IMG/VR virus record: IMGVR_UViG_3300020048_000017
Span: 1 to 64,000 of that record
Source of the DNA: a virus
Strand: one strand, 5' to 3'
Length of the DNA: 64,000 bases
A model generated the notes under the pieces. It did not search any database. It saw only the letters and a list, made by a program, of their open reading frames with translations, and was not told where the DNA came from. The translations under genes and the position numbers were made by a program. Of this stretch, positions 6,950-22,726 are shown one piece after another (the first letter of the stretch is position 1; each line of letters starts with the position of its first letter).

Positions 6950-7600
6950 GCGGGATGAATTAGATAGCCACGTAGATTTTTGAATCATTTCCAGCTTCCG
7001 GCCCGCCAGTAAAAATTAAAGTTTGCTTTAAGAGGGTTAAGAGAAAGTATAGTTTGCTTATGGAGGATTGAGGAGGGTTCAGGAATAAAGGGAATTGAAG
7101 AGGGTTTGGGGAAGTTGACGTTCGGAGGGTTCTGGGAGAGCGTTCGGATGAGGAGGGATTTTTGAAAAGTTTTGAAGGGAGGAGGGTTGGTAGAGAAGTT
7201 GGTCCCCCCATGCCCGCCATAGCCACCATAATCTTCATATTTTCCGTAAATACCCCTACCCCTTATAATTTCCATAACTTTAGTAATTGTCACAAAAAAG
7301 GAGCGCTTGCGCGCCCCTTTTATGGTATTTATGGAGACTATGGTTAATCCTCCAATCCCGTCGTGCGGGGGATATACTGTTCAAAAAGACAGGCGTCTTC
7401 GATCTCGGCGTTCTCCATCTCAAAAGAGGTGTTCAAAAGAAACCTGTTCATCTGGGCAGCAGAGCGGCGCTCGATGGCGGACTCGGTAGTGTTCATTTCG
7501 ACAGTGTTCGAGAGAGTAGTGGTCATATTCTTTAGCTTTCTTTATTGTTTGGTTAGTGGAGGTTTTCTCCCCTAGTCGCTCACTCCGTAGCGAGCGACAC
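6950..7600. other. non-coding junction between convergent gene blocks; GGAGGG repeats and degenerate boxes
   Basis: strand switch; G-rich then C-rich + strand; TGTTC half-sites at 7378, 7430, 7445, 7490, 7505. Confidence 0.6.
7576..7600 (-). terminator. hairpin downstream of LexA-like gene
   Basis: GTCGCTC...GAGCGAC inverted repeat just after the stop. Confidence 0.5.
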
Positions 7601-7614
7601 GGGGAAAAGACTGT

Positions 7615-8094
7615 TCACTTGGCCATCTTTTTGGTCTTCTTTTTCGTCACCGAATAGCCTAGCTTGCGAAGATACGCGATTGCGTCCCTTTCTTTATTGT
7701 CATCTAAGAATTCCGACATAGGAACGGCGGCGCGCGCCATACAATTTCCCATATTTCGCACTAGCAAACCGGCCTTTTCCAGCGATTTGAGGCAATTCAT
7801 AGCGCTTGTCTGGGAGGGAAAGCCCATAAATTTCTGAATATCCCTTGTGGACGGGGATACGCTATGCTTTGCACGGTGACAGGTAATATAATCGAGCACT
7901 GCCCTATCATTATTAGAAACGCTACCGTTTCCAGCGACTATCGTGACGGATTTTGCCGGTGCGGTACGAATCGCATCTGCCGTGATTGAAACGCTACCGT
8001 TTGAGCGTGTCATCTTGACACGGCCATTTTGAGACGTGCCGTGAATTTTGGCGATTTTCACCGCCGTGCTTTTCTTAACTGAATTTTTTCTCAT
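7615..8094 (-). CDS. LexA-type winged-helix DNA-binding domain protein lacking the S24 autocleavage domain
   Basis: residues ~60-125 NNDRAVLDYITCHRAKHSVSPSTRDIQKFMGFPSQTSAMNCLKSLEKAGLL match the LexA NTD pattern; ends ~35 aa later with no peptidase domain. Confidence 0.85.
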   Translation of the reverse strand: MRKNSVKKSTAVKIAKIHGTSQNGRVKMTRSNGSVSITADAIRTAPAKSVTIVAGNGSVSNNDRAVLDYITCHRAKHSVSPSTRDIQKFMGFPSQTSAMNCLKSLEKAGLLVRNMGNCMARAAVPMSEFLDDNKERDAIAYLRKLGYSVTKKKTKKMAK

Positions 8095-8132
8095 ATGAAC
8101 AAATCGGGTAAACTGGCGTCATTGCCAAGTAA

Positions 8133-8160
8133 AATATACCATACGCAAAAACGGTGTCAA
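8133..8160 (-). promoter_or_regulatory. promoter of LexA-like gene
   Basis: TTGACA-16 nt-TATATT on - strand. Confidence 0.75.
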
Positions 8161-8194: not shown

Positions 8195-8653
8195 TGCCCT
8201 TATGAACATGTATGTATGAACACTGGGTTGCGTGCGTCCCCGTGCGTGCGTGCGTCCCCGTGCGTCGTTGTTCATTTGAACACCTATCGGGGCTTTGTTC
8301 ATTAGAACAAAATTCGTATGCTCGTTTGAACACTACTCTCCTGAGCACTGTGCGTATGCACACCCTTGTTCATTTGAACACTGTGTATATGAACACTACT
8401 CATGTGGTCACTGTGCATTTGAACAACTGTCTAAAAAGGCTATGTTCAAGAAAACACTGTTCAAACGGGCACTGTTCAGAAAGGCATAGGGGAAATGTTC
8501 AAATGGACAAACTCCAAAAATGTTCAATCGAACACTACTTGGAAAAACCGTTCGAAAACGCGCGAGGGCTAAAACGCCGCAATTTATTAAAAAGGATTTT
8601 TGTTCAAAAGAACATATCGAAAATAATAACATTCATATTTGTTCAAATGAACA
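8195..8653. promoter_or_regulatory. dense cluster of ~14 TGTTC-N4-GAACA (SOS-type) boxes
   Basis: perfect at 8269, 8296, 8367, 8521, 8601, 8640; about 8 degenerate copies between them. Confidence 0.9.
8229..8266. repeat. (TGCG)n-CCCC tandem repeat
   Basis: TGCGTGCGTCCCCGTGCGTGCGTGCGTCCCCGTGCGTC. Confidence 0.8.
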
Positions 8654-8666
8654 TATTCCAGATACG

Positions 8667-8690
8667 AAAAAACCCCGCTTTCGCGGGGCT
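8667..8690 (-). terminator. intrinsic terminator, shared family CCCCGCGAAAGCGGGG-U tract
   Basis: identical 16-mer (+ strand CCCCGCTTTCGCGGGG) at 8673, 9174, 9446, 10135, 12165, 23205. Confidence 0.9.
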
Positions 8691-8702
8691 CTCGGTTTTC
8701 AA

Positions 8703-8951
8703 TTACTCAACCCATGACCGCCCGCCTTGCGTGACGAGCGTCTCCCATGATTTCATCCCTGCCATGATTTCCCATGATCCCTCATGGTTTTCCTGATACG
8801 ACGGGCGGGGCTTGGATGCCCGAATAGCGGAATCGCGTTTAGCGATTTCCACTTTGCGAATACGCTCCGCTTCATCGCGGGCGAAATTGGCGGCGGCGAT
8901 TTCCTCGCGCTTAGCGCGGGCTGACTCGATGATGGCTTGACGGTCTCTCAT
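8703..8951 (-). CDS. hypothetical protein (array unit)
   Basis: ORF between own promoter and terminator. Confidence 0.65.
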   Translation of the reverse strand: MRDRQAIIESARAKREEIAAANFARDEAERIRKVEIAKRDSAIRASKPRPSYQENHEGSWEIMAGMKSWETLVTQGGRSWVE

Positions 8952-9012
8952 GGTAAAACCAGCTTAAACCACTTATTCAAAATAAGCAAGTAATTATTTA
9001 GCCCAATTTTCA

Positions 9013-9025
9013 TATAATTTCCATA
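9013..9025. promoter_or_regulatory. TATAATTTCCATA motif in the promoter-proximal slot
   Basis: copies at 9013, 12501, 14792, variant 20613, partial 19194, each 23 nt upstream of a -35 hexamer; a further copy at 7264. Confidence 0.75.
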
Positions 9026-9042
9026 GCCCCATTTCCCCTCGG

Positions 9043-9154
9043 TGTTCAAACGAACATGTATGTGGTTTCTCTTAATGTGTTTCTTATTGGGTTGTTCAAA
9101 TGAACATTAACGAATCGGGCGGCTTAGTGAATTTCGAGAATGTTCAAACGAACA
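9043..9154. promoter_or_regulatory. three SOS-type boxes
   Basis: perfect at 9043, 9093, 9141. Confidence 0.9.
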
Positions 9155-9199
9155 AAAAGGGTCGAAAGAAAAACCCCGCTTTCGCGGGGCGTTCGGTTT

Positions 9200-9343
9200 T
9201 CAAATAGCCCGAGTGAGGGCGATGCGGCTCTCGTTGCGAGCGAGGCGACGGACGAAATCCGCAACTTGCGCGTCTTCGATTTTTTCAGACGCAACGAGGC
9301 GGGCGGTGAGAGAGGAGAGGATAAGGGAGACGATTTCTTTCAT
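9200..9343 (-). CDS. 47-aa peptide, paralog of 13071-13214
   Basis: MKEIVSLILSSLTARLVASEKIEDAQVADFVRRLARNESRIALTRAI; leaderless start. Confidence 0.75.
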   Translation of the reverse strand: MKEIVSLILSSLTARLVASEKIEDAQVADFVRRLARNESRIALTRAI

Positions 9344-9473
9344 GGATCTAATCTATTCCACTTATTTAAAAAAGCAAGTATTAATTTGTCCAATTTTTCA
9401 TAGCAACTTCGCTGTTCAAACGAACAAAAAGGAGCCAAGGAAAAACCCCGCTTTCGCGGGGCCTCGGTTAGGG

Positions 9474-9794
9474 TTAAAGGGATTCAACGATATACTTGGC
9501 AGCGGCGAGCCCGATATCCGACCCGTGATGCGCGGGAAAAGCATGGGGGAATTTACGTCTGAGATAAGCCACGGCTTTCTCGTCATGATTGAAAGCCCCG
9601 CGAACCATTCTGATTGCGGGAATTTTCATATTCGCGTCCCTGTAGACGATGCGGGCTCCGTCGATGACCGCGTCAACCCGCCCTCGAAGGTAAGGATCTA
9701 CGGGCTCCACCGAGGCGGCGAGAAGGAGGTTAGCGTCCCTCTCGCGGAGAGCGGGGGATTCGATGAGGGCGGCGATGATCAGGTTTTTGTCCAT
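9474..9794 (-). CDS. hypothetical protein with ribosomal bL12 CTD-like motifs
   Basis: starts MDKNLIIAAL; KIPAIRMVR...IGLAAAKYIVES; paralog of 15695-16027. Confidence 0.55.
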   Translation of the reverse strand: MDKNLIIAALIESPALRERDANLLLAASVEPVDPYLRGRVDAVIDGARIVYRDANMKIPAIRMVRGAFNHDEKAVAYLRRKFPHAFPAHHGSDIGLAAAKYIVESL

Positions 9795-9799
9795 GCAAG

Positions 9800-9828
9800 A
9801 CAGTAGCACAGGTCTTTTTATTTGTCAA
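9800..9828 (-). promoter_or_regulatory. array promoter (representative)
   Basis: TTGACA-17 nt-TACTGT-5 nt-ATG. Confidence 0.8.
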
Positions 9829-9864
9829 ACGCTTTTTTACAATGTTTAGATTTTATTTCAGGGC

Positions 9865-10115
9865 TGTTCTTATGAACAATGTTTTTGATTTTAGTTTGAT
9901 TTGAAATGTTCAAACGAACAATGTTTTGATTTCATTCTATAAACTGTTTTGAGTCCATGTTCAAATGAACACCAATGATTTGATTTGGGTAATAATTTGA
10001 TTTCATGTTTAAACGAACAATTGTTTTGAATACGCAAACTGTTTTGAGCTGGCTGTTCAAATGAACATGTGTTTTGATTTGAATAAGTGATTTGAATGGT
10101 GTGTTCAAATGAACA
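9865..10115. promoter_or_regulatory. six SOS-type boxes with ~48-nt period
   Basis: 9865, 9907, 9958, 10006 (1 mismatch), 10054, 10102. Confidence 0.9.
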
Positions 10116-10157
10116 ACTACGTAGGCCGAAAAAACCCCGCTTTCGCGGGGCTTTCTG

Positions 10158-10331
10158 TTACGATGGAAAATAATAATTGATCTTACCAAAAAAACCGTTA
10201 GGGATCACACAAAGCCCGCTCCGAGTTCCGCCCTTTCCATTTACCCATTTACAGGGCTTGTATCGACTCCCGTCGAGAATGATTTCCGCCAAGGTCCAAC
10301 TGACTCCGTCAACAATTAAGGTTTCGTTCAT
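10158..10331 (-). CDS. hypothetical protein
   Basis: leaderless ATG 10331 behind TTGACA-17-TATCGT. Confidence 0.6.
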   Translation of the reverse strand: MNETLIVDGVSWTLAEIILDGSRYKPCKWVNGKGGTRSGLCVIPNGFFGKINYYFPS

Positions 10332-10401
10332 TCCCAACGATATCACATAGGTTTCCAATTGTCAACAAGTATTTTACTACTTCAAAATTATTTAGCCCTG
10401 C

Positions 10402-10492
10402 TTTTCATTTGAACACCCTTCCTTAAACTCCCGTGCCATTGTTCATTTGAACATGGTTGTTTCTGTATGTGGATAGGATGTTCATTTGAACA
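10402..10492. promoter_or_regulatory. three SOS-type boxes, 38-39-nt period
   Basis: 10402 (1 mismatch), 10440, 10479. Confidence 0.9.
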
Positions 10493-10543
10493 AATCGTAG
10501 GCAAAGAAAAACCCCGCATAAGGCGGGGTTCTCTCGTTTGTGA

Positions 10544-10717
10544 TTAGCTGAGGTCCCAGCTAGTGAGTCTTTTCAGGTGAGGCGTGAAATCTTCCCCCAT
10601 AGAACGAAGTCGCGAGTTATTGGCGTGACGGTTTCGGCGGCGAGCGCTCTTTTTGATCGGTGAGAAATTACCGCCCACCCAACGGCGAGCCAGTTTGATG
10701 TCAAGAGTTGAGTCCAT
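10544..10717 (-). CDS. 57-aa basic peptide
   Basis: MDSTLDIKLARRWVGG...KKSARRRNRH...TSWDLS*, followed by terminator. Confidence 0.6.
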   Translation of the reverse strand: MDSTLDIKLARRWVGGNFSPIKKSARRRNRHANNSRLRSMGEDFTPHLKRLTSWDLS

Positions 10718-10755
10718 TTTTTAAGATAGTCGCGGCTTTCTAATTTGTCAAACGA

Positions 10756-10947
10756 TTATTTCCAGCTCTTTCTGATGAGGTATTTTTCACCGATCAGAGC
10801 GGAACCCGTAAGGAACCCGCCCGACATGATCAGGGCGGTGAAAAGGTTAGGCTCTTTCGTCATCACAAATACCGGCATTGCGATTGCGATTAGAACGAGT
10901 CCAAAAAGGAGGATTATACAGAGAAGGATATCAAAAACGATTTTCAT
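10756..10947 (-). CDS. small two-TM membrane protein
   Basis: leaderless start behind TTGACA-17-TATAGT. Confidence 0.6.
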   Translation of the reverse strand: MKIVFDILLCIILLFGLVLIAIAMPVFVMTKEPNLFTALIMSGGFLTGSALIGEKYLIRKSWK

Positions 10948-11007
10948 TACTGGACTATAATACACTTTTTTCTAATTGTCAAATGCTTTTTAATAATCTT
11001 TTTCGAT

Positions 11008-11123
11008 TGTTCAAATGAACAATTGCTGCTTATGATTTCAGGCGAATGTTCAAACGAACAAATACCTTGTTGTTCATTTAAACAATGGTATTGGCTATGT
11101 GGTTTACGTTGTTCATTTGAACA
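11008..11123. promoter_or_regulatory. four SOS-type boxes
   Basis: 11008, 11047, 11110 perfect; 11072 one mismatch. Confidence 0.9.
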
Positions 11124-11166
11124 TTCCGATAATCGAGAAAAGCTCGCGCTAGGCGAGCCGTTCAGT

Positions 11167-11484
11167 TTAAGCAACAAATCCGTTGCAACCAATAACATTG
11201 CCCTTGTCATCGCGGATTAGTTCCGCAGGTGAAAGAAGGTCTTTCCGATCAGGCATGGCACTTTTCACCATTGCGGAAACGATGAGAAGTTTGCCCGCCT
11301 CCCGCTCTGGAAGGTTTTCAACCTCGCCGAAATAGCGGGAGAAAACTGGGATACCTCCCGCAGCCGTTCCGGTTCGAGAGAGGATTTGAGAAACCCTTGC
11401 GACAATGCCGCAAGGTGGAAACACGACGTGGTGAGTTTCATCAAGGATGACAACGATTTCATGGGGGGTGAGGTTTTCGACCAT
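11167..11484 (-). CDS. conserved hypothetical protein (NLTPH family)
   Basis: NLTPHEIV...PPCGIVARV...LIVSAMV...RKDLLSP...RDDKGNVIGC. Confidence 0.7.
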   Translation of the reverse strand: MVENLTPHEIVVILDETHHVVFPPCGIVARVSQILSRTGTAAGGIPVFSRYFGEVENLPEREAGKLLIVSAMVKSAMPDRKDLLSPAELIRDDKGNVIGCNGFVA

Positions 11485-11543
11485 GAGAGACTTTAAACTA
11501 GAAAGTCTAATTTGTCAAACTCTTTTTTCAATTAGATTTCATT

Positions 11544-11673
11544 TGTTCATTTGAACGTGGTTCTACTCTATGTGTGTAATGTGTTCGTTTGAACACCCCC
11601 CCCATATCCTTATCGTTGTATTGTTCATTTGAACCTATGTGTTTCTATGGTGGTATTTTCGTTCATTTGAACA
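11544..11673. promoter_or_regulatory. four SOS-type boxes, 38-40-nt period
   Basis: 11544, 11582, 11622, 11660. Confidence 0.88.
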
Positions 11674-11714
11674 TTTTCTTAAACGAGAAAACCCCGCTTT
11701 CGCAGGGCTCTCTT

Positions 11715-12032
11715 TTACATGACGAAAACGAGATTGTGCATAGAGAGTTTTTGATATGTCGCTTTCACGATCTCACAAAATTCCTGAGTGTAGATTGAGG
11801 GCCTTTCGCTTTCGCCTGTCACGTAGCTTTCCAGATTATCAAACCAACGAGAGGCGAGAAACGAACCGATTTCATTGTGGCGGTTGAGAAGTTGACGGGC
11901 ACGACACCCCATTCGATATTCACGGGACCATTGCCCCGTATGGTAATGAGCGCTCCACAGCATGATTCCGATGAGTGATGCGATACGATTGTAATCTTTA
12001 ATTTTGAGTGGGTGCGTATAATAGGTTTTCAT
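11715..12032 (-). CDS. hypothetical protein
   Basis: array unit. Confidence 0.65.
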   Translation of the reverse strand: MKTYYTHPLKIKDYNRIASLIGIMLWSAHYHTGQWSREYRMGCRARQLLNRHNEIGSFLASRWFDNLESYVTGESERPSIYTQEFCEIVKATYQKLSMHNLVFVM

Positions 12033-12093
12033 GGTATTTTAATCTATGCGCGTTTTGAAATAAGTCAACAATTATTTTACCCTATCTTTCGAT

Positions 12094-12146
12094 TGTTCAT
12101 TTGAACATGTTTCTAATTCTCTTTTTATGCTTTGTTCATTTGAACA
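12094..12146. promoter_or_regulatory. two SOS-type boxes
   Basis: 12094 and 12133, both TGTTCATTTGAACA. Confidence 0.9.
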
Positions 12147-12188
12147 TTTCAACCACCGAAAAAACCCCGCTTTCGCGGGGCGTTCGGA

Positions 12189-12443
12189 TTAGAGGATGTA
12201 ACAGGTCAGCTCATAGGTGCCGCTGCTCATGCGGTAGATCGTGATATGGAAATACTTTTTAGTAGCTTTTCCTTTCAGCTCGACGATGGAAAGATGAGCT
12301 TGCTTCGTTTCCTCATATTTCAGGCCTTCGCTGAATTGTTCGTGGACTTCGCTCTGCGCAATAGAGGCGCGGGAATTGGCCGCGTGATTGATCGCGGCAT
12401 CAAGAGCTTGTGAGAGGGTGGCGTGGTAGATGGGGTATTCCAT
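12189..12443 (-). CDS. conserved phage hypothetical protein
   Basis: YHATLSQAL...HITIYRMSSGTYEL pattern. Confidence 0.65.
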   Translation of the reverse strand: MEYPIYHATLSQALDAAINHAANSRASIAQSEVHEQFSEGLKYEETKQAHLSIVELKGKATKKYFHITIYRMSSGTYELTCYIL

Positions 12444-12526
12444 TCCAGACAGTAAACCAGTTATTTCTAATTGTCAAACGGTTATTTCATCATTTTGAAT
12501 TATAATTTCCATAACGAACGAGGGGT

Positions 12527-12616
12527 TGTTCAAATGAACATGGCGGCTCTATTATTTAGGAGTATGTTCAAATGAACATTTTGAATAAGTCGTTCTAGCG
12601 TTTGTTCTAACGAACA
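12527..12616. promoter_or_regulatory. three SOS-type boxes, 38-nt period
   Basis: 12527, 12565, 12603. Confidence 0.9.
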
Positions 12617-12658
12617 TATTTATGGCAAAAAGAAAACCGCCCCGAAGGGCGGCTTCGA

Positions 12659-12898
12659 TCACTCGACAATTGTCACCGTAGCGTCCCCCCGAAGGATATC
12701 CAAATTTTCGAGAGTGTAGGGAACCCCGAGGAGATCCTTTTTACAGTTATCCTCCTCATCCCAGTATTCGCCATAGACTTCGAACATGCCCTCTCCGCAG
12801 TTGAGGATAAATCCCTCATGGCTTTTGAAGTCCACGAAAATGATGAAGCGCCCTTTTTCGGCGGTGACGATTGAGATGAAGTAATGGGTGTTTTCCAT
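12659..12898 (-). CDS. hypothetical protein
   Basis: array unit. Confidence 0.65.
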   Translation of the reverse strand: MENTHYFISIVTAEKGRFIIFVDFKSHEGFILNCGEGMFEVYGEYWDEEDNCKKDLLGVPYTLENLDILRGDATVTIVE

Positions 12899-13070
12899 AG
12901 AACACAGTAATCTAGTCTTTTCTAATTGTCAACAACTATTTTACTACTGTTTTCATTTTGTTCGTTTGAACATTTTCGTAGGGTGATTTGATTTTGTTCT
13001 AATGGACAACCCGCGAACAAAAGAGAGGGCGCAACGTATTGAGCCCCCTCCCACCATGTTTACCCAAAAA

Positions 13071-13214
13071 TTAGATTGCCCGCCCAAGGGCGAGACGGCT
13101 CTCGTTTCGAGCGAGACGCTTCGCGAAATCAGCCACGGCGGGGTCTTCGATTTTGGCAGCAGCCGCAAGACGATTCGAGAGAGAGTTTAAAATGATGTGC
13201 AAGGTTTCTTTCAT
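13071..13214 (-). CDS. 47-aa peptide, paralog of 9200-9343
   Basis: MKETLHIILNSLSNRLAAAAKIEDPAVADFAKRLARNESRLALGRAI. Confidence 0.75.
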   Translation of the reverse strand: MKETLHIILNSLSNRLAAAAKIEDPAVADFAKRLARNESRLALGRAI

Positions 13215-13370
13215 GTAATCAATATAGCAGGGTTTTAAAATAAGTCAACAATTGAATTGTATTATTTTCACCCCCAATCGCGCCATGTTAATTTGAACAC
13301 TATTAATTACACTGGATGTTCATTTGAACATTTTACGGATAAAGAGAAACCCGCGCAAGGCGGGCGGCTC

Positions 13371-13538
13371 TTATTCTGAAAGTGGGTTAGCTTGCAACCT
13401 ACGGTTTAGCCTTATATAACCAGCATACATAGCGAGCAACTCGCGGGACCAGCGGCGATGAGCCACGTTTTCGTGGTGGCGATCCCTGAAAGCTTTCCTG
13501 ACGATCACCATACACCGCTCTTGATAATTGAAGTTCAT
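13371..13538 (-). CDS. hypothetical protein
   Basis: leaderless ATG 13538. Confidence 0.55.
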   Translation of the reverse strand: MNFNYQERCMVIVRKAFRDRHHENVAHRRWSRELLAMYAGYIRLNRRLQANPLSE

Positions 13539-13652
13539 AAGTGACAATAGACGGCTTTTTAAATATGTCAACATTTGTTTTATCAAGGATTTATTTTGTT
13601 CAAATGGACATTTTATTGATAAGGGAAAACCCGCTCAAAGCGGGCTGTCCTT

Positions 13653-13874
13653 TTAGAGAGGAGTTCTCATCATTTTGGCGATCTGAGCCGTATTCATTGC
13701 GATACATCCGAAAGGTCTAGAGGTCGAAGGGTCATGCACGTATTGCCCCGCTCGGCGCTTAGCTTTGTTCCCATTGCCGCGAGCGCTTGCGGATTCCAAG
13801 TTCATTTTAATAATGCACCGAATCATTTTTGGATAGCGTGACGTAGGGTGAAGAGAGTTAAGTAATATCATCAT
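13653..13874 (-). CDS. hypothetical protein
   Basis: array unit. Confidence 0.5.
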   Translation of the reverse strand: MMILLNSLHPTSRYPKMIRCIIKMNLESASARGNGNKAKRRAGQYVHDPSTSRPFGCIAMNTAQIAKMMRTPL

Positions 13875-14030
13875 TTACATTGTATATTAGATTTTAGAAT
13901 TGTCAAGCGTTATTTTACTAATTAGGAGCGATGTTCAAACGAACATCTCGTTTCTTCGTAGTGTATGGGGTTATGTTCAAATGAACTTTTAGTAGACACA
14001 AAGAGACCCGCGCAAGGCGGGCCTAGTTGG

Positions 14031-14312
14031 TTAAAGTTTCGCAATCCTTCCGACGATTTCCATCACTTCGTTGGCGGGGATGTATCCCAGAACGTCTGGA
14101 GTGATCGGGGTTGAGTAGTCCAGAGAACCATCTTTCATAACCGCGATTTCCCAGAGTCCTTCCTCGCCACCGTAGGAATAAGGATTCTGGACGATTGAAG
14201 CAGAGTAGCCGTTAGGCAGATCCACAACGAAGCGGTGACCCCCAGCGTGAGCTTGATAATGCACGTTCGCAAAATTTAGATCGGCAGGTTTGGTAAAAAA
14301 GGTGATTTCCAT
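14031..14312 (-). CDS. conserved phage hypothetical protein
   Basis: LPNGYSASIV...SYGGEEGLWEIAV...YSTPITPDVLGY widespread phage pattern. Confidence 0.7.
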   Translation of the reverse strand: MEITFFTKPADLNFANVHYQAHAGGHRFVVDLPNGYSASIVQNPYSYGGEEGLWEIAVMKDGSLDYSTPITPDVLGYIPANEVMEIVGRIAKL

Positions 14313-14462
14313 TTTTAAATCTATCACACAATAAATTAAATGCAAGTTCTTTTTATCAATTATTTTCAACGTGTTCAAATGAACAACTTAAGCGATTTGT
14401 TCTAATGAACATTTTATTGATAAGAGAAAACCCTCCCCGAGGGGAGGGCTCTCGCCCTTATC

Positions 14463-14714
14463 TCAATCGTAAGCCATCAGGGTTCCGTTGTCGTAGGGTT
14501 CGCAAAAGAAACCGAACTTGGCCAAGGTGTCAACTAGCTCAGGATGAAATTGCTCCGCAGAGTATGGACTGAAGTAACGTCGCCCGTCAGGGTGACATTC
14601 TCCCTCCATGCGAAACCAAACCCCTCCTTCTTGACCGTCCCACTCGACAGTGGAAACGGCATTGATATTCGGAAATTTCTTGTTCAGCGTGTCAATCAGT
14701 TTTTGGATTTTCAT
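14463..14714 (-). CDS. conserved phage hypothetical protein
   Basis: GGVWFRMEGE...HPELVDTLAKFGFFCEPYDNGTLMAY. Confidence 0.65.
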   Translation of the reverse strand: MKIQKLIDTLNKKFPNINAVSTVEWDGQEGGVWFRMEGECHPDGRRYFSPYSAEQFHPELVDTLAKFGFFCEPYDNGTLMAYD

Positions 14715-14917
14715 AGGTGGTGCGGCTTTGCCGTGAGGTAAGGTATCACAGTTCTTTTTAAAAGTCAAACGGTTTTTAATTCATTTTTAATTATAATTTC
14801 CATAATGTTCAATCGAACAACGTTTTGAATTGTTCAAATTTTTAATATGTTCGTTTGAACCAATGTTCTTATGAACAAGTTCTAGGCAAAAGAAAACCCG
14901 CTTGCGCGGGCTTAGCT

Positions 14918-15190
14918 TTAAAGAAGCCTGTCGGGGGATATGTAGTTAACCCCTAAGTGACTGTCAAAGTAGTGATTCTTTTCCCCGATAGTGATTCGTA
15001 GAGTCTGGTAAGCCCCGCAACATTCGCAGTCACCCATGCCGCCCTCAGCCGTTGCCTTGCGAAGTTTTTTACCTCGCCCTTTTCTGATGCTCAAAACAAA
15101 CTTTTCATCGAAGGAAATATCCTTTTCGTTAAGTAGATTGTTAAATTCCCAAACGCCTAGCCCGTCTTTTGGTATGGTGATAAATTTCAT
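14918..15190 (-). CDS. hypothetical protein
   Basis: array unit, CECC motif. Confidence 0.6.
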   Translation of the reverse strand: MKFITIPKDGLGVWEFNNLLNEKDISFDEKFVLSIRKGRGKKLRKATAEGGMGDCECCGAYQTLRITIGEKNHYFDSHLGVNYISPDRLL

Positions 15191-15318
15191 GGTAAAGCAA
15201 TATAGCGCAGCTTTCTAATTTGTCAACACTTATTTTATCAGGTATTTGATTTTGTTCAAATGAACTTACGCAGATAGGGAAAAGGGGCTGGCACTCGCCA
15301 GCCCCTACCATGACCACC

Positions 15319-15555
15319 TTAAATTTTCACGAAGACAGGAAAGCCGAAGTGTTTCATTGCTTCGAATGGGTTAGTGAAAGCGTTGGATTTGTAACCAACG
15401 TAATAAGAGCTTTTCTTACCCATTTCAACCACAGTTCCGGTCATGAGACCTTTCCCGTTTTTGATCCTCTCATATTCTCCATCTGGGAGTTCGAGGATAA
15501 ATTGTTCATTTTTCGGACAAGGTCCGACGTTTCCGATGTAAAGCATTCTGGTCAT
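15319..15555 (-). CDS. hypothetical protein
   Basis: array unit. Confidence 0.6.
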   Translation of the reverse strand: MTRMLYIGNVGPCPKNEQFILELPDGEYERIKNGKGLMTGTVVEMGKKSSYYVGYKSNAFTNPFEAMKHFGFPVFVKI

Positions 15556-15694
15556 AAATTAATATAACACACTATTTTAAATTGTCAAACGCTTTTTGTA
15601 TATATTTTTCGATTGTTCAAATGAACGCAAGTATAGACAATGTTCAAATGAACAAACTCTAGGCAAAAGAAAAGCCCCTTGCGGGGCATGACCC

Positions 15695-16027
15695 TTAGAG
15701 GTCTTTCGCGATATCCTCGACGATAGCTTTCGAGAAAGCCAGCCCGAGGGTGTTTCTGCCGTCGTAATAGTTCGTGAGAATCGCCATGTCGGGCATCAGG
15801 AGGAGACCGAACGCCTTGGTGAAATACGCAGAAACGTCAGATTGATAAGCCAACTGGCGGAGGAGTTTAATGGCGGCGATTTTGCCCTCGCTCACAAAAC
15901 GATCACCGATCATTTAGATTTCTGGGCGAACGAAGACGGGGGACATTTTTTCCGCAAGGAAATCTGCTGCGTAATTGCGGAAAGAAGGAGATTCGGCGAG
16001 GATGGCTATGATAAGGTTTTTGTCCAT
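15695..16027 (-). pseudogene. split paralog of 9474-9794 (37 aa, in-frame TAA, then ATG and 72 aa)
   Basis: MDKNLIIAILAESP...RPEI*MIGDRFVSEGKIAAIKLLR...LGLAFSKAIVED; TAA at 15914-15916. Confidence 0.6.
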
Positions 16028-16181
16028 GGGTAACCATATCACATGTTGAATCATTGTCAAATGGTTTTATTGCCTATTTTGAAATTGTTCATTTGAACTA
16101 AAGTCGAAGCATTGTTCATTTGAACACGCCAACGTAAAAAAATGGGGGCGAGCACTCGCCCGCCCCCGCTCCATGACCACC

Positions 16182-16409
16182 TTAAAAATATTGCACGCCC
16201 GCCATCGTCGCGGCTCTGTAATTCTGTTGTGCCTCAAGATCTTCGAAATCGTATTCGTCGGTAAAGTTAGGATCGAGGAACGAGCGAAGGGATTCACAGT
16301 ATTCCTGATCCGTCCCCTTAAAGTGAATGATTCGAGTGATTTTCTTTCCTTCGCAGATCGCTTTGCCGACTTCGCTACGAGTTACTTTTGAGAGAGAGGT
16401 GATGTGCAT
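16182..16409 (-). CDS. hypothetical protein
   Basis: array unit. Confidence 0.6.
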   Translation of the reverse strand: MHITSLSKVTRSEVGKAICEGKKITRIIHFKGTDQEYCESLRSFLDPNFTDEYDFEDLEAQQNYRAATMAGVQYF

Positions 16410-16540
16410 GAATCAATATAGCATAGGTTTTAAATAAGTCAAGCGTTTTTTTATTACTTCTTCAAAATATATTAGCTCTGTTCATTTGAACGGCCGCTAT
16501 CTGATTATGTTCATTTGAACCGTGTATAAGGGTTTCCCCT

Positions 16541-16978
16541 TTAGCAGATTAGGTTTTCAATTCTTGTAAATTCTCCAACGCAAGCGGAAAGGGCTATTTC
16601 CATGTCTTCGATACATTCGCCATCGAAAGCCCCGCACAAGTGAACCTCTGAGCCTTTAAGGCCCTTTATCCATTCTGGAGTATGGACCACCTCCGAATGA
16701 CTCCCACCTTCCACATATTCGTTTTCGTTTAGGAACATGTCAGGTTCCCACCCATACCCGTAATCGTGCCACTCGCTAACGTAATCGGCGAGACCCGTTT
16801 CGATATGAACATCTTGAGCTTTCCAGTCCTCAAACTGAGTTAAGATGACTTTATCGAATCCGTTCTCTTCGATGTGATCGCGAACGTTTAAACACCATTC
16901 GAAGCAGTCTTTACCGCTCAGCTTAATTAGTGAAGCTTCCCACATTGGCTCTAGGTGATGGACGATCAAAACTTTCAT
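16541..16978 (-). CDS. hypothetical protein, possible cysteine-hydrolase (isochorismatase-like) fold
   Basis: KVLIVHH...VHLCGAFDGECIED. Confidence 0.35.
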   Translation of the reverse strand: MKVLIVHHLEPMWEASLIKLSGKDCFEWCLNVRDHIEENGFDKVILTQFEDWKAQDVHIETGLADYVSEWHDYGYGWEPDMFLNENEYVEGGSHSEVVHTPEWIKGLKGSEVHLCGAFDGECIEDMEIALSACVGEFTRIENLIC

Positions 16979-17066
16979 AAATAACAATAGCGCGGATTTA
17001 TTATTTGTCAAGAGCTTTTTATTTAAATGTCAAAAATGTTCATTTGAACCCTATGGGGGTTTCCCC

Positions 17067-17633
17067 TCACATGGAGAGGATTTCGTTTTTGTTAGAGGGT
17101 TCCATTTCGATGTGTTCCCCGTAGTAAAATTCCACCTTGCTTTTTGAGATAGCTTCCGCCGCGTCTCTCAGGCCTTGAGGCACTTCAGGCTCGTTTCTCA
17201 TGTGGCTATCCCATGACATTGTATTGGCGAGCATGAACGGTTTGAAATAGGTAACGTCATTACTGAGCCAAATCTTTTCAATTGCACTCGCGGGAATAGG
17301 TTCGCGAGAGACTACCGCCCCGTGCATGTTTTCACATGAATCGTCAGGCTCGTAATTCACCGCCGACGCTTTGACTTGGAAAATCACAAGGTGAGAGCAA
17401 TTGTTTTGAATCACGGAATTTTCGGCGGCATCTTTTGCGTATTCGATACAGAGATTGTCGGAATATTTCGCTTCTTCTCCATTACTTTTAGCTACGTCTT
17501 TCAGAGACCAAAAATAATTGTATCCCGCTGAAACGTTCCAGATTTGTTCCCCCTCGTTTCCATCGAAACCGTTTTCGAGGATCGCTTGAGCGTTTTTTAG
17601 ACAGGTGCCGTGAAAGAGGTAGTTTGCGGTCAT
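17067..17633 (-). CDS. putative ADP-ribosyltransferase-fold protein
   Basis: LFHGTCLKNAQAILENGF...YNYFW...LVIFQV...IPASAIEKIW. Confidence 0.45.
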   Translation of the reverse strand: MTANYLFHGTCLKNAQAILENGFDGNEGEQIWNVSAGYNYFWSLKDVAKSNGEEAKYSDNLCIEYAKDAAENSVIQNNCSHLVIFQVKASAVNYEPDDSCENMHGAVVSREPIPASAIEKIWLSNDVTYFKPFMLANTMSWDSHMRNEPEVPQGLRDAAEAISKSKVEFYYGEHIEMEPSNKNEILSM

Positions 17634-17867
17634 GGTTAAGCATAACACGACTTATTAATTTGTCAACTCTTTTAATTCTATTATTTCACTTTGTTCAAAT
17701 GAACGCGAACGCATGTATTTTGCTTTTGTATGCGATCACATGTTCAAATGAACATTTGGGGCATAAAAAAAAACGAGAGAGGATTGGAGCCCCTCCCGCC
17801 TTTTCGTATCTTCTCTCACCGCGCATGGCGGATTTTTGCCGTAAGGTCAAGCCCTACGGTATGGGAG

Positions 17868-18065
17868 TTAATAAGAATACAAAAGATCTTCAACCCCTTC
17901 CCCGTCAATCCCGTAATGGTTCATAATATCCATGGGATCTTCGAACTTTCCCTTTCCTTCGATCAGTTTGTCGAAGTGTTTCTTGATAGCTTTTTTCGTG
18001 GATTCGATTTGCTTAGGGGTTTTGCCCTGCCCTTCGAGACATTTGGTAATACAATCTTTGGCCAT
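17868..18065 (-). CDS. hypothetical protein
   Basis: array unit. Confidence 0.6.
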   Translation of the reverse strand: MAKDCITKCLEGQGKTPKQIESTKKAIKKHFDKLIEGKGKFEDPMDIMNHYGIDGEGVEDLLYSY

Positions 18066-18217
18066 GTTCTACAATACCACAGATAAAATTAAAGTCAAGC
18101 GCTTTTTATTACTACTTTGAAAATGTTCGTTTGAACAGTCTCTACAGCTTTGTTCATTTGAACATCCGTTCGTAAAAAAATGGGGCGAGCACTCGCCCGC
18201 CCCAAGGTATGACCACC

Positions 18218-18394
18218 TCAAAAAGTTCTGTCGTCCCGAATTTCTACGGTAGCCCCATCCCCGTAGTATTTGATCAGCTTAACGATGATCTTGAGCCGTT
18301 CGGTGTCATCCTTTGCGGGGTCTTGCCCGTAGGTTTCGGGGTCGCGAAAGGAAACGTGAGTATCGGAGATAGTAATGAAGAGGTGCTTTTCCAT
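18218..18394 (-). CDS. 58-aa hypothetical protein
   Basis: MEKHLFITISD...RDDRTF*, own leaderless promoter and terminator. Confidence 0.6.
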   Translation of the reverse strand: MEKHLFITISDTHVSFRDPETYGQDPAKDDTERLKIIVKLIKYYGDGATVEIRDDRTF

Positions 18395-18416
18395 TCTTCA
18401 CTATACCACACGTTTT

Positions 18417-18731
18417 TCATTTGTCAAATCTTTTTATTTCCGCAAAGTTCAAAATATAAATAGGCCCCAATTCGTGAATTGTATCCCGCTCCACAACGTA
18501 GTCCATAAGGTCCATTGAAGAGTCTCCCGTAACGTCGCTAGGGTCTAACTGCGTCCAGTAGTTGAAATACTCACCCTCTTCCATGGCTTGTTCGTAACCT
18601 AAGACGTTGCGCACACACTTGTTAAGTTTGCGCTTTATCTCTCTGTGGCCTTTCACCCCTTGAGGGGCGCAGCACGAACAACGGAGACCACCGACACCGA
18701 TAAGCTTGTTTGAGATTTTCTTGTGGATCAT
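18417..18731 (-). CDS. hypothetical protein
   Basis: GGLRCSCC motif. Confidence 0.55.
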   Translation of the reverse strand: MIHKKISNKLIGVGGLRCSCCAPQGVKGHREIKRKLNKCVRNVLGYEQAMEEGEYFNYWTQLDPSDVTGDSSMDLMDYVVERDTIHELGPIYILNFAEIKRFDK

Positions 18732-18870
18732 GTATTATACTACACGGGTTTTTAAACAAGTCAAGCGAATTTTAGTATATTTGAAAATGTTCAAATGAAC
18801 AACCGTTTAGCGAATGTTCAAATGAACTTACCTCGCAAAAGAAAAAGGCGGGGTTTCCCCCGCCCGTCCC

Positions 18871-19113
18871 TTACTCCCCGAAACCGTAGGCGTAACGCTC
18901 GCCCCACTGGTTGTCAAATTGATCGTCCTCATCCTCGTAATCGTCGGCGAGGTCTTCGCTACCGAATTCTTCGAATTCGTAATCCTCTTCTTCTTCGCGA
19001 CTCCCGAAGTGGGGCATATTCATTTCCTCGAAATCGGCTTCGTGAACGTCCCGACCATGGTAAAGTTCTTCCATGGTATCGGCTCCGCAATCATCTTCAT
19101 CGTAGGTATTCAT
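18871..19113 (-). CDS. highly acidic 80-aa protein (DNA-mimic candidate)
   Basis: 32 of 80 residues D/E, no Lys. Confidence 0.6.
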   Translation of the reverse strand: MNTYDEDDCGADTMEELYHGRDVHEADFEEMNMPHFGSREEEEDYEFEEFGSEDLADDYEDEDDQFDNQWGERYAYGFGE

Positions 19114-19399
19114 ATTTAGGTGACGCTCTTTTGGCGTGAATTAACTTAACACACTATTTCTAATTGTCAAATGCTTTTTATCCTTTTTCGAAATATAATT
19201 TCTAGAATGTTCAAATGAACAAACCCCCAAACGAAAAATCGCCTGCCTTTCGGCAAGCGTTTTTCGAATTCTTTTTCTTGCGGTCGGGGACCACTTTGGT
19301 TCCCATACCTAACACGAACGCGGCCCCACGTTTCGGGGCGTATGGTTTGATCGGTTTCTTCATGAGATATTATTACACCAATTTGAAGGTTGTCAACTA

Positions 19400-19618
19400 T
19401 TAATTTGCGGGCAGGGAAACGTCCCTCACATAGTCAAGATCTGCTTTAGCTACCATCTTGATCATATCGTCAAGATTTTGCACGGGGCAGAGAAAGCGCC
19501 CGTTACCCATGCGGACAAGAACAAGTTGAAGTCTGTCCTCTTCGATAAGGGCAAGAGTATCTTCTGGGCTGGTGAGAAAGCCTAGCGTTTCTTTGCGGAT
19601 TCTTTGAGATGCGGTCAT
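19400..19618 (-). CDS. hypothetical protein
   Basis: leaderless ATG 19618. Confidence 0.6.
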   Translation of the reverse strand: MTASQRIRKETLGFLTSPEDTLALIEEDRLQLVLVRMGNGRFLCPVQNLDDMIKMVAKADLDYVRDVSLPAN

Positions 19619-19647
19619 AAAGAAATATAACACTCTTTTTAATAATG

Positions 19648-19875
19648 TCAAGCGGAAATTCTACCACCGAAACAACGAGAGAATTGATCTTGTGAGGATT
19701 CTCTTTTCGAGGTAGGGGTCCAGTCCGCCCAAAACATAGATACTTGCCAACGTGGATATTGATCCTTAACTTTCTGAGAAGCTTCTGGCGACGATTGAGC
19801 AGTCACTGAAATTTTCTTCGTGCGGGGAATCCGACGCATTACGGCATCTTCGACAAGGTGGAATGTATAAGTCAT
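19648..19875 (-). CDS. hypothetical protein
   Basis: array unit. Confidence 0.55.
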   Translation of the reverse strand: MTYTFHLVEDAVMRRIPRTKKISVTAQSSPEASQKVKDQYPRWQVSMFWADWTPTSKRESSQDQFSRCFGGRISA

Positions 19876-20022
19876 AAAGAACTATAGCACCCTTTTTAAT
19901 ATTGTCAACCATTAATTGTCTATTTCGAAAATGTTCATAAGAACAACCTGTTTCTAATTTGTTCAAAAGAACATGACGACGAACGAATAAAGGGGAGGGT
20001 TTCCCCTCCCCCGTTAGGGTTT

Positions 20023-20556
20023 TCACCCTTCGATTTTGTAATGTGTCCCGTTCACCGTGATTCCAGTAATTGATTCCAGCTTGTAGTTGCGCGGGACCAC
20101 TTCGCGCTCCACTCCGAAGTCCGCTTGACGGCTTGAGCTTGACTTTTCAGGCTCAAAGGACTTGATTTCCGCGAGGACTTCATCCGTCACACGCTCCCCG
20201 TCGCAAGTGTAATACACTTCAGAGGGCTTCATGTGAGGGTTGCAAGTCACGCGGATTTGCAGCTCGCCCTTGTGTTCGATAATCTTGTGAGGGACCAGCC
20301 AGCTACCATAGGCGAGTTTTTCCGCTTTGAACTCTCCCGCCTCTTCGACGCCCTCGCGGCCCGCTTGACGGTTAACGCCGTTTTCGTAGTTGGCTCCGAT
20401 AGAGACGTTCAGCCCCTTGGAGATTTTCCGGATACGCCCCACGTAGGGATTGCCGGTTTTCCGCATGGCGGGTTCCGTAGAGGTTTCCAACGTGGCGAAC
20501 GTGGTCCCTTTAACGGCTTTGATCGTGGCAACGAGCTGGTCTTTGGTTAACTTCAT
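20023..20556 (-). CDS. conserved phage hypothetical protein
   Basis: leaderless ATG 20556; MRKTGNPY...YENGVNRQ pattern. Confidence 0.7.
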   Translation of the reverse strand: MKLTKDQLVATIKAVKGTTFATLETSTEPAMRKTGNPYVGRIRKISKGLNVSIGANYENGVNRQAGREGVEEAGEFKAEKLAYGSWLVPHKIIEHKGELQIRVTCNPHMKPSEVYYTCDGERVTDEVLAEIKSFEPEKSSSSRQADFGVEREVVPRNYKLESITGITVNGTHYKIEG

Positions 20557-20737
20557 GTAGCAATATATCACAGGTTTTAAAGAATGCAAGCGCTTTTTTC
20601 ATTTAATTTCATTATAATTTTCATAAGGTTACAATTCAGGAATTGTTCCTTTGAACATCGTGAGGTTCTATGCGTTCGTTTGAACAATTTCCGCAATCTT
20701 GATTTTGTTCATTTGAACCATTAGGAAGGCTTTCGCC

Positions 20738-20932
20738 TCATTGGTAAAAAGTTATGTTCAGATTATTCAGAGCGCCGAAGTCAAGTTTCTTTTCGCCGAA
20801 CCCTTGTTCTGTAACCCTGTATAGAACCCCGTCCCGAATCCGAAGGGTGTAAGACCATACTTGATTGTTGTAAGTCCACATTGCGACAAACTGACCAGAG
20901 TCCGGCATGATTTTTGATGAGGTGATTTGCAT
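20738..20932 (-). CDS. hypothetical protein
   Basis: array unit. Confidence 0.6.
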   Translation of the reverse strand: MQITSSKIMPDSGQFVAMWTYNNQVWSYTLRIRDGVLYRVTEQGFGEKKLDFGALNNLNITFYQ

Positions 20933-20973
20933 GATTTGAATATAACAGACTTTTAGAATTTGTCAAGCGTTTT

Positions 20974-21204
20974 TTAAAGAACCCCTTCGCAATTCATTTG
21001 GTGCATAAGGCAAAGCCCTAGCGACTCAGCAGCCTCCGAGTAGTCAAAAGGCCCATTAACCTCTAGCCCGTAGACTACGTGAAAAACTTCTTTGTGAGTC
21101 CTTACTAGAAATACAGCCCCGCTTTCGAAAACGACCTTTCCTTCAGGCCACTTGATTTTTTCGAGGATTCCTTGATAGTTTAGATAGTGAGTAGGTTTAG
21201 CCAT
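20974..21204 (-). CDS. hypothetical protein
   Basis: array unit. Confidence 0.6.
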   Translation of the reverse strand: MAKPTHYLNYQGILEKIKWPEGKVVFESGAVFLVRTHKEVFHVVYGLEVNGPFDYSEAAESLGLCLMHQMNCEGVL

Positions 21205-21309
21205 AAGTCACTATAGACTAGTTTTAAATAATGTCAAGCGATTTCTTTAGCGCCAGTTTTCCGAATGTTCAAATGAACCTCTATAGAGTTTGGGGCCGAA
21301 GCCCTCCCC

Positions 21310-21747
21310 TTACTTCTTTCTTGGTTTGCGATTCATTGCGGCAACTTCTTTCTTTTCGAGTAGCACGGAGGAACCCGAAGAGAATGCGTTGATTAGGACT
21401 AGGAAAAGCCCCGCAATGATCTTGAGCGTGAGGATAGGCGCGAGAACCATGCAACCCTCTAGCAAGACCACAAACCCCGCAGCTTTCACCCTGTCGTTCG
21501 CGAAAGCTGCGCGGGACCACTGGTAAACGGATTTTGCGGAAAACACGCAACCCCCGATAATCAGGCCCATAAGCCACGGGTATTCCTTACACCCCATAAC
21601 GAGGTCATGAGAGACGCCCATTGTGTATTGAGTGAGACAGAAGATAGCCACGGGAACGAAAGCCCCCATTGCGGCACCGATCCCGAAGGGGAGACGGTTG
21701 TTTTTCTTGAAGGCTCGGCGAATTTGTTCGGTGATGGATATTGTCAT
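21310..21747 (-). CDS. multi-pass membrane protein
   Basis: about four hydrophobic segments. Confidence 0.65.
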   Translation of the reverse strand: MTISITEQIRRAFKKNNRLPFGIGAAMGAFVPVAIFCLTQYTMGVSHDLVMGCKEYPWLMGLIIGGCVFSAKSVYQWSRAAFANDRVKAAGFVVLLEGCMVLAPILTLKIIAGLFLVLINAFSSGSSVLLEKKEVAAMNRKPRKK

Positions 21748-21857
21748 CCCTAAGTATAGCATAGGATTTTTAATTGTCAAATGCTTTTTTAATTAATTCT
21801 CGCATGTTCATTTGAACAGATTCGGTACGCAGAAAAAGGGCCGAAGCCCTTTCCCTT

Positions 21858-22175
21858 TTAAACATACATTCCCTGTTGCATCTTTTCGAGATATTCAAGC
21901 AAAGTTTTGTCCCCGCTCCAGTGCAAATCCCTTTCGATGCCGAGACCGAAACGGAGTTTGATGCTTTCGAGTTCCGATAACGAAACGGTCCCCAATTCGG
22001 GGCATCCCATTCCAAGATCGCACAGCCCAAACAGGGTGTCCCCGTCCTCTTCGATTTCAGAGATCAGCCACGTTCCAGAACCGCACGGGTTGAAAAACTT
22101 AACGACGGGTTTTTGATTCTCTTTACCCCGATTAGCGATAAGAGCCGACATGATAGATTTGGTGATCAGTTTCAT
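21858..22175 (-). CDS. DUF2958 family protein
   Basis: PVVKFFNPCGSGTWLISE...LFGLCDLGMGCPELGTVSLSELES...IERDLHW. Confidence 0.85.
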   Translation of the reverse strand: MKLITKSIMSALIANRGKENQKPVVKFFNPCGSGTWLISEIEEDGDTLFGLCDLGMGCPELGTVSLSELESIKLRFGLGIERDLHWSGDKTLLEYLEKMQQGMYV

Positions 22176-22611: not shown

Positions 22612-22726
22612 TAGGAACTATACCACAGATTTTTCGATTGTCAAGTGATTTTATTATCAATACCGTTTTGTTCAAATGAACCTTTGTTCAAATGAACCTA
22701 GTGGGTAAAGGCCGAAGCCCCCACCC

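Follow-up and report, generated by a model that had tools for sequence, protein, structure and literature searches.

Stand-alone LexA heads, that is LexA-type winged helices without the S24 self-cleavage domain, are common in phages, and to our knowledge gp6 of GIL01 is the only one that has been studied. GIL01 is a 15-kb temperate tectivirus of Bacillus thuringiensis, and its gp6 is a LexA-head-only transcription activator without an S24 domain. It operates alongside host LexA, recognises a palindrome and works at one late promoter from position -43.5, overlapping the -35 element (class II; PMC6182141). Here we describe a 159-aa phage protein of this general type, called the regulator below, whose gene lies on the minus strand of the window, the first 64 kb of the complete 179,178-bp virus record IMGVR_UViG_3300020048_000017, which has direct terminal repeats. 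The regulator is a LexA N-terminal-domain-only protein incapable of RecA*-stimulated self-cleavage, and its gene stands at the edge of an array of about 100 host-type LexA boxes flanking some 40–50 small phage genes. We found no description of such an arrangement in the literature searched. Judging from sequence, the regulator quite probably binds the boxes and controls the array. The best overall explanation, to which we give somewhat better than an even chance, is that it would serve as the phage's own RecA*-insensitive box reader, acting upstream of -35.

The likeness to gp6 is one of architecture, as both are phage-encoded LexA DNA-binding domains without S24 and hence RecA*-insensitive. 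However, gp6 carries only a short C-terminal extension, whereas the regulator has a conserved 58-aa N-terminal module, a C-terminal helix and a basic tail. While gp6 uses its own palindrome overlapping -35 at one promoter, the candidate sites here (about 100) follow the host consensus and end 23–26 or 36–37 nt before -35, about 30 bp further upstream, at no fewer than 36 promoters of a 179-kb phage. Verrucomicrobial LexA holds the closest DNA-binding domain (37–47% identity over about 60–80 residues), with the same S-Q-T head, wing and operator consensus, but it also has a linker, an Ala-Gly site and a Ser-Lys peptidase/dimerisation domain, none of which is present in the phage protein. Other short phage proteins with a LexA DNA-binding domain (PHROG 24920, 3502 and 362; in BFVD, from Mycobacterium phage Wildcat, Tectiviridae and uncultured phages) are likewise stand-alone winged helices, mostly of 65–100 aa and without the N-terminal module; we found no matching box array reported for them in the literature searched. 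The mycobacteriophage L5 repressor gp71, which is not LexA-like, is likewise a small phage regulator with dozens of dispersed short intergenic sites. Its approximately 30 "stoperators", which lack symmetry, block elongation from within transcription units, whereas the boxes described here are palindromic and stand between a terminator and the promoter that follows.

A LexA head without a cleavage domain

In a profile search, the regulator's open reading frame (ORF) matched LexA_DNA_bind of Pfam (PF01726) over residues 62–116 with 27.3 bits, above the gathering cut-off of 23.7; in a profile scan of the whole genome it was the sole such gene (28.9 bits). Peptidase_S24 (PF00717) had no match in the ORF or across the complete 179,178-bp genome. 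These results bear out the first-pass annotation, made from the sequence alone, which had read a LexA-like winged helix-turn-helix without the Ser-Lys peptidase domain, so that self-cleavage would be impossible. Since the cleavage domain is missing, the action of the regulator is predicted to be indifferent to RecA*. The NCBIfam equivalog for LexA, TIGR00498, reached 25.3 bits against a cut-off of 110.95, matching only at profile positions 5–62. Alignment to full-length LexA stops at the wing, after which the regulator has only 34 residues (the annotation had estimated a tail of about 30 aa), and this tail aligns with nothing in LexA. The protein was thus not classed as LexA proper, two defining features being absent: the S24 Ser-Lys domain and a linker with the Ala-Gly self-cleavage site.

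The fold points the same way. AlphaFold2, run with a 56-row alignment, placed residues 61–125 at a predicted local distance difference test score (pLDDT) of 89–97, with three helices and a two-strand wing; a single-sequence model (pLDDT 42) was unusable. Foldseek ranked LexA N-domains from first to ninth (E. coli 3jso, 1lea and 1jhf; Thermotoga 3k2z), with root-mean-square deviations of 0.8–2.2 over 68–72 columns and a template modelling score of 0.83 to the isolated domain 1lea. VIA-align, an independent all-against-all aligner, gave Z 12.2 for 3k2z and 11.8 for 1leb, with the next winged-helix families at 9.6 or less. LexA, rather than another winged-helix family, was thus the best structural match with both aligners. 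By sequence, a search of the PDB with the regulator returned only E. coli LexA, at E 0.58. Membership in MarR or HTH_27 was considered and rejected, as profile scores were under the cut-offs (MarR_2, 13.9 versus 27 bits; HTH_27, 17.8 versus 22.2 bits) and structural Z did not exceed 9.1.

A HMMER search of 1.84 billion representative proteins, made without filter or profile, returned 66 hits. Five of these, all metagenomic and 146–172 aa long (P0002, P0005, P0011, P0022 and P0044), align over the full length, so that the family amounts to six representatives among the 1.84 billion. The remaining hits were mostly N-terminal pieces or whole LexA proteins, and by tblastn they were 50–100% identical to Verrucomicrobiota lexA loci; P0003, for example, matched a Prosthecobacter metagenome-assembled genome at 100%, P0012 Akkermansia muciniphila at 97% and P0010 Chthoniobacter at 92%. 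When 5.8 billion proteins were searched by words, only the regulator itself was recovered; tblastn found nothing at E 1e-3 among 50,697 phage records, and scans of viral contigs with P0001, P0022 or a conserved 30-nt promoter element found nothing. As a separate observation, the metagenomic proteins P0014, P0020, P0028, P0042 and P0064 carry two or three LexA-type winged helices per chain and no S24 domain; judging from their sequences, they are possibly single-chain "dimers" of the LexA head.

The family alignment also clarifies the two ends of the protein, both of which are basic. The N-termini of the three closest relatives (MRKN, MKNQ and MNKV) support a start at the ATG at 8094. The first-pass annotation had described the first 58 or so residues as an arm rich in Lys, Arg and Ser. 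An extension of that length does exist, but it is not a mere arm: Q22, G24 and R25 (SQxGR) and R43 and A45 (IRxA) are invariant across the six members, and AlphaFold2 drew three strands at 26–31, 34–39 and 48–53, at a low confidence of pLDDT 54–68. The module had no match in Pfam or NCBIfam, and residues 1–60 gave no usable atlas match. As read from this conservation, it is a conserved part of a new kind. Full-length members share the wing motif GNSxAR, and the three closest relatives have in common a C-terminal helix ending in LGYSV(T/R)K, followed by the Lys-rich tail.

Host-type boxes at phage promoters

The target proposed for the regulator is the palindrome TGTTC-N4-GAACA. Perfect copies number 60 in the window, against 0.09 expected, and these are all the perfect copies in the 179-kb genome. 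They lie between 8269 and 41617, with 58 of the 60 in 8.2–30 kb; sites with nine of ten matches number 36 in 8.2–45 kb, of which 32 fall in 8.2–30 kb. The first perfect box is 175 nt from the regulator gene.

The first-pass annotation had taken the host to be verrucomicrobial and the box to be the operator of its LexA. As this motif was not found stated in any paper of the literature searched, it was tested directly on lexA loci. The domain alignment, scanned against 185,579 species genomes, gave 591 confirmed loci, the best 80 of which were analysed; the scan is biased by its peptide pattern, and tblastn of the HMMER hits (above) served as the unbiased check. Among the best 80 loci, 77 are labelled Verrucomicrobiota and one Flavobacteriaceae, and two are unlabelled. 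A perfect TGTTC-N4-GAACA lies within about 70 nt upstream of lexA in 55 of the 80, and the rest of those loci (about 240 kb) holds only nine matches of 9/10 or better. The phage box therefore matches the phylum's autoregulatory LexA operator at these promoters. Both parts of the annotation's proposal agree with this, and Verrucomicrobia is supported by sequence as the host phylum.

The lexA promoters without an N4 box have TGTTC in other arrangements. Opitutaceae/Opitutales loci (L016, L036, L038, L048, L066 and L085) carry GTGTTCATGAACAC, in which the same half-sites are separated by 2 nt, directly behind a TTGACA promoter, and Akkermansiaceae loci (L006, L012, L077 and L081) carry the direct repeat ACTGTTCA-N9-ACTGTTC at the lexA promoter. 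LexA site architecture, as read from these promoters, varies inside the phylum.

The likeness to verrucomicrobial LexA that the annotation had anticipated extends to the recognition helix. The consensus of the 80 host proteins is SQTAAM(S/N)HL(R/K)AL, with S-Q-T invariant in 80 of 80, and the phage helix SQTSAMNCL (SQTSAMNCLKSL) is nearly equal and retains S-Q-T. Because the reading head is nearly identical to that of host LexA, binding of both phage boxes and host SOS operators is a reasonable expectation. At position 6 of the box a purine is preferred on both sides, A in 87 of 120 phage half-sites and G in 66 of 110 host half-sites; this difference fits the G+C contents (40% in the phage, 58% in the host) together with one recognition mode.

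Units of the array are 300–500 bp long and run, on the minus strand, from a terminator hairpin through one to three boxes and an A-rich linker to TTGAC(A/T)-16-TAnnnT and an ATG about 5 nt past -10; most carry two or three boxes at regular spacing. Promoters matching TTGAC-N16/17-TAnnnT number 119 in the genome, about two thirds of them with an ATG 3–8 nt past -10, and from these sequences the phage seems to rely largely on leaderless mRNAs made from sigma70-type promoters. Thirty-six promoters have a box within 40 nt upstream, all but four of them at 23–26 or 36–37 nt. The promoter-nearest box ends 23–26 nt before -35 in 26 cases and 36–37 nt before it in eight; only one box of 99 overlaps a core promoter. 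With the transcription start placed at the leaderless ATG, the box centres fall at about -65 or about -77, the two positions differing by one helical turn. Since the 36 boxed and 79 unboxed promoters have the same preferences in -35, spacer and -10 (their A-tracts are similar as well), the box marks a class among like promoters.

In the mechanism that we propose, the regulator would have descended from a LexA by keeping the head and wing, losing the linker and the S24 self-cleavage domain, and gaining the N-terminal module, the C-terminal helix and the basic tail. It would read TGTTC(A)-N2-(T)GAACA boxes, the consensus of the operator at verrucomicrobial lexA promoters; these stand, with constant and helically phased spacings, upstream of -35 at no fewer than about 36 otherwise ordinary sigma70-type, mostly leaderless promoters in 8–30 kb. 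Because the boxes almost never lie over the core promoter, we propose that it would act through contact with RNA polymerase or a higher-order assembly and not through simple occlusion. For the phage boxes it would be in competition with host LexA, and it could also occupy host SOS operators.

Provided that the boxes are bound, positive regulation (recruiting transcription, or maintaining it when LexA is cleaved) is plausible from the layout, at a little short of an even chance; shut-off of the small-gene block would come after it as a less likely outcome, and some other mode is improbable. For activation, the boxes avoid the position of the host LexA operator even though the interval from -35 to -10 has room for a 14-bp box, their spacing steps by one helical turn, and gp6 offers a precedent by analogy. 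A RecA-proof stand-in would moreover sustain LexA-site-dependent transcription once infection triggers LexA cleavage.

As an overall account, a non-cleavable repressor or silencer that bridges box clusters around the 300–500-bp units, or traps RNA polymerase, and locks host SOS off strikes us as unlikely, although several observations speak for it. Boxed promoters are as close to consensus as unboxed ones, and class-specific control would then most simply be negative; most units hold two or three regularly spaced boxes, and both termini of the regulator are basic. The phi29 protein p4, bound upstream of a strong promoter, represses it by holding RNA polymerase in place. In large virulent phages, host-takeover genes are commonly switched off and blocks of small early genes are usually closed after a few minutes. 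However, no box lies over -35, -10 or the start site where it could fit, phasing by one turn relative to -35 is more typical of activators, and if occupancy repressed, host LexA would silence the block on phage entry.

The wHTH gene adjoins a dense repeat cluster, and the regulator has weak PHROG matches to replication initiators (270, 428, 678 and 12838; E 0.03–0.2), which could suggest an iteron-binding initiator with its origin in the box-dense stretch at 8.2–8.66 kb. These matches are of doubtful significance, LexA is the clear best match, and the boxes extend over 22 kb, keeping a fixed spacing to the promoters. We judge this reading very unlikely.

Relatives of the regulator and their boxes

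The contigs of the relatives are short, save one of 80 kb (P0022) whose sequence stops 1.25 kb upstream of the gene. Wherever upstream sequence is available in a relative, the gene lies at the edge of a box cluster (clusters upstream in L002, L086, L087 and L088), and boxes occur on the gene's upstream side only, 4.6 kb and 10 kb of downstream sequence being box-free. Box type changes between lineages together with the helix. P0002 (SQNSTMLAL) has four tandem TGTTCAAATGAACA; P0022 (GNTVAQRAI) has boxes TGTT(T/C)A-NN-T(A/G)AACA, mostly in the T/A form; and P0011 and P0044 (SQSSAQQFL and SQSRAQQYF) have TACTCA-NN-TGAGTA as well as TGTTC-type boxes and hybrids such as TGTTCATTTGAGTA. The Pfam LexA score declines in the same order, from 27.3 bits for the window protein through 24.4 (P0002) and 18.8 (P0022) to none (P0011/P0044). 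Half-sites TGTTT or TACTC were found at none of the 80 verrucomicrobial lexA promoters, and TACTC-N4-GAGTA, the box type of P0011/P0044, is not enriched in the window (three one-mismatch matches versus 1.3 expected). A complete 191-kb relative of the phage, G001 (IMGVR_UViG_3300042868_010004), whose terminase is 37% identical, has neither a LexA-like gene nor a single TGTTC-N4-GAACA and is a natural negative control for the system. Gene and boxes thus co-occur, are co-absent and apparently co-vary, and the pairing of box and helix is still what would be expected if the phage protein, rather than host LexA alone, partners the phage boxes.

An alternative, modelled on GIL01, is that host LexA alone reads the boxes, making an SOS-gated block, and that the regulator binds elsewhere at a few promoters, for instance at the element at 8178–8208 (Table 1) or at the motif TATGGAAATTATA. 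Several observations suit such a division of labour: gp6 itself binds GaCACAC-GTGTGaC, which is no LexA box, the phage boxes are perfect host-type operators, the helix of P0002 differs while its box is the same, and further conserved motifs lie near the gene in relatives. Yet a reading head almost that of host LexA would be expected to read the same half-site, TGTTT and TACTC are absent from the host lexA promoters although they are paired with diverged phage helices, and the boxes avoid the operator position used by LexA as a repressor. We regard this alternative as rather improbable.

The reading that we prefer, in which the regulator itself reads the boxes, faces several objections of its own. 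Box binding by the regulator is proposed from sequence, the co-variation comes from only four lineages on short contigs, and P0002 has several helix changes with an unchanged box. Variation of the relatives' boxes could instead track the LexA of their hosts. The same boxes should also be bound by host LexA, which might be the only protein to read them. The boxes are palindromic and the regulator has no recognisable dimerisation domain; a two-copy homodimer prediction from the family alignment scored 0.30 against a mark of 0.42, which speaks neither for nor against a dimer. As boxed and unboxed promoters are equally consensus, an activator is not obviously needed, and the regulator's own promoter has no full box in the slot used in the array. 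Finally, gp6 of GIL01 reads a palindrome unlike the LexA box (PMC6182141).

More tentatively, and with doubts that outweigh our confidence, a lineage of large verrucomicrobial phages may have taken the host SOS operator as a common control of small early genes, read by a RecA-proof LexA head. One protein would then drive or close about 40–50 promoters and at the same time rival LexA in the host SOS regulon, and sister lineages would show operator and head drifting together and away from the specificity of the host (TGTTC to TGTTT to TACTC, with hybrids). If true, this would be a natural series of transcription-factor/site co-evolution. Here a LexA-head-only protein would be tied to about 100 copies of the host SOS operator, in activator-like positions, across a 22-kb block of small genes. 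If the boxes are bound, the locus would be a compact case of a phage re-using the code of a host regulon while immune to the host's off-switch. It would also offer a possible means of holding the SOS response, or of subverting it, in a phylum that has received little study, and the family, though small, would be one whose sites and reading heads change in step.

Surroundings of the regulator gene

The features discussed here and above are collected in Table 1.

Table 1. Positions of the regulator gene, its parts and its neighbouring elements in the 64-kb window
Feature	Position	Strand	Evidence or remarks
Coding sequence of the LexA-head-only regulator, 159 aa	7615..8094 (stop included)	-	ORF list; full-length relatives P0002, P0005, P0011, P0022, P0044
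Residues 1-58, basic start and conserved N-terminal module (SQxGR ... IRxA)	7921..8094	-	Six-member alignment; AlphaFold2
Residues 59-125, LexA-type winged helix-turn-helix	7720..7920	-	PF01726 27.3 bits; pLDDT 89-97; Foldseek; VIA-align; recognition helix SQTSAMNCLKSL, wing RNMGNCMARAAVP
Residues 126-159, conserved helix (..LRKLGYSVTK) and Lys-rich tail, no S24 domain	7615..7719	-	Alignment; AlphaFold2; profile searches
Acidic ORF, 60 aa, last gene of the minus-strand block	7344..7526	-	Homologues after the regulator in L002, L003
Stable hairpin just past the stop, no U tract	7565..7608	-	dG -35.9 kcal/mol, z -5.9
Out-of-frame 15-codon upstream ORF (uORF) overlapping the main start	8075..8122	-	ATG 8122
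8/10 box TTCTC-ATAT-GAACA over the start codon, one perfect half-site	8088..8101	.	Sequence
Leader, about 31 nt of RNA by inference, no Shine-Dalgarno, holds the uORF start	8095..8132	-	Sequence
Own sigma70-type promoter, TTGACA (8160-8155)-16-TATATT (8138-8133)	8133..8160	-	No full box in the array-type slot
Promoter-proximal half-box element TGTTCATAAGGGCnCGnAAAATAAATGAAA	8178..8208	-	33-34 nt before -35; kept in the two closest relatives
ORF-free box-dense stretch, about 450 bp	8209..8660	.	Perfect boxes at 8269, 8296, 8367, 8521, 8601 and 8640, and many half-sites
Box array proposed as the regulator's target	8269..41617	.	60 perfect and about 36 9/10 TGTTC-N4-GAACA, nearly all in 8.2-30 kb

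The regulator gene has a leader that most array genes lack, with 38 nt between its -10 and ATG as against 3–8 nt, and within this leader starts a short out-of-frame uORF; both features had been recorded in the first-pass annotation and are present as described. The leader is common to the two closest relatives, and the more distant members are leaderless, starting 6 nt past -10 with M(AM)TP... Because the opening of the uORF, ATGACGCC, aligns with the leaderless start of P0022, P0011 and P0044 (M..TP..), the uORF is probably what remains of an ancestral start without leader, a relic left behind when the N-terminus was remodelled. In L002 and L003 short upstream frames end in ATGA on the main ATG; the upstream ATG of L003 is 1 nt past -10 and probably untranscribed. 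Coupled translation of the upstream frame and the main ORF is possible but unsupported. A programmed frameshift at an A6 run, by which the uORF would be fused to the main frame, was rejected as needless, the downstream ATG and the N-terminus being common to the three closest relatives.

The annotation had further proposed that the gene is autoregulated through a degenerate box over its ATG. The box exists but, as a single site, is not beyond chance. Matches of 8/10 occur at 0.48 per kb in the box-free 134 kb and about 18-fold more densely in 7300–8200 (eight hits, all half-site), a density that reflects dispersed TGTTCA/TGAACA half-sites, of which the acidic ORF contains five. In relatives, too, a TGAACA/TGTTCA half-site is found at the start codon, in other registers and with no conserved full box. 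The box over the ATG is thus weak evidence for autoregulation, and because no full box occupies the array slot of the gene's own promoter (the nearest perfect box, at 8269, is 108 nt upstream of it), the proposal is left unsupported. The half-box element at 8178–8208 and the box-dense stretch next to it are better candidates for feedback.

Near the gene, the motif TATGGAAATTATA is conserved in all relatives (L002 1145–1165; L003 1000–1015; L086 170–190; L088 500–520) and is found in the window at 7264 and as copies in the array. In the vicinity of the regulator it is better conserved than the box, and on this ground a second factor may bind there.

The regulator gene is the penultimate one of a minus-strand block and is followed by the hairpin, the acidic ORF and a convergent junction with plus-strand genes. 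The two closest relatives, L002 and L003, keep the acidic ORF, a hairpin after the stop and the half-box element (TGTTCATAAGGGnnnnnAAAATAAATGAAA). In L003 the hairpin shows compensatory changes, from GTCGCTCGC/GTGAGCGAC to GTCCCTCGC/GCGAGGGAC, and in L002 a different hairpin stands in the same place. Lying between the regulator and the acidic ORF, the hairpin may be an element for processing or stability. The acidic ORF repeats (M/L)NT codons that spell TGAACA half-sites, with five 8/10 box hits inside it, and selection may act on either the peptide or the half-sites. L086 has a 63-aa ORF at the same position. Lastly, a G+C-rich direct repeat (ACGCACGGGGACGCACGC-like) lies at 8225–8265 on the minus strand, between the last perfect box and the regulator's promoter, and a diverged form of it stands at the same place in two relatives (L003 1–30 and L087 1125–1160).

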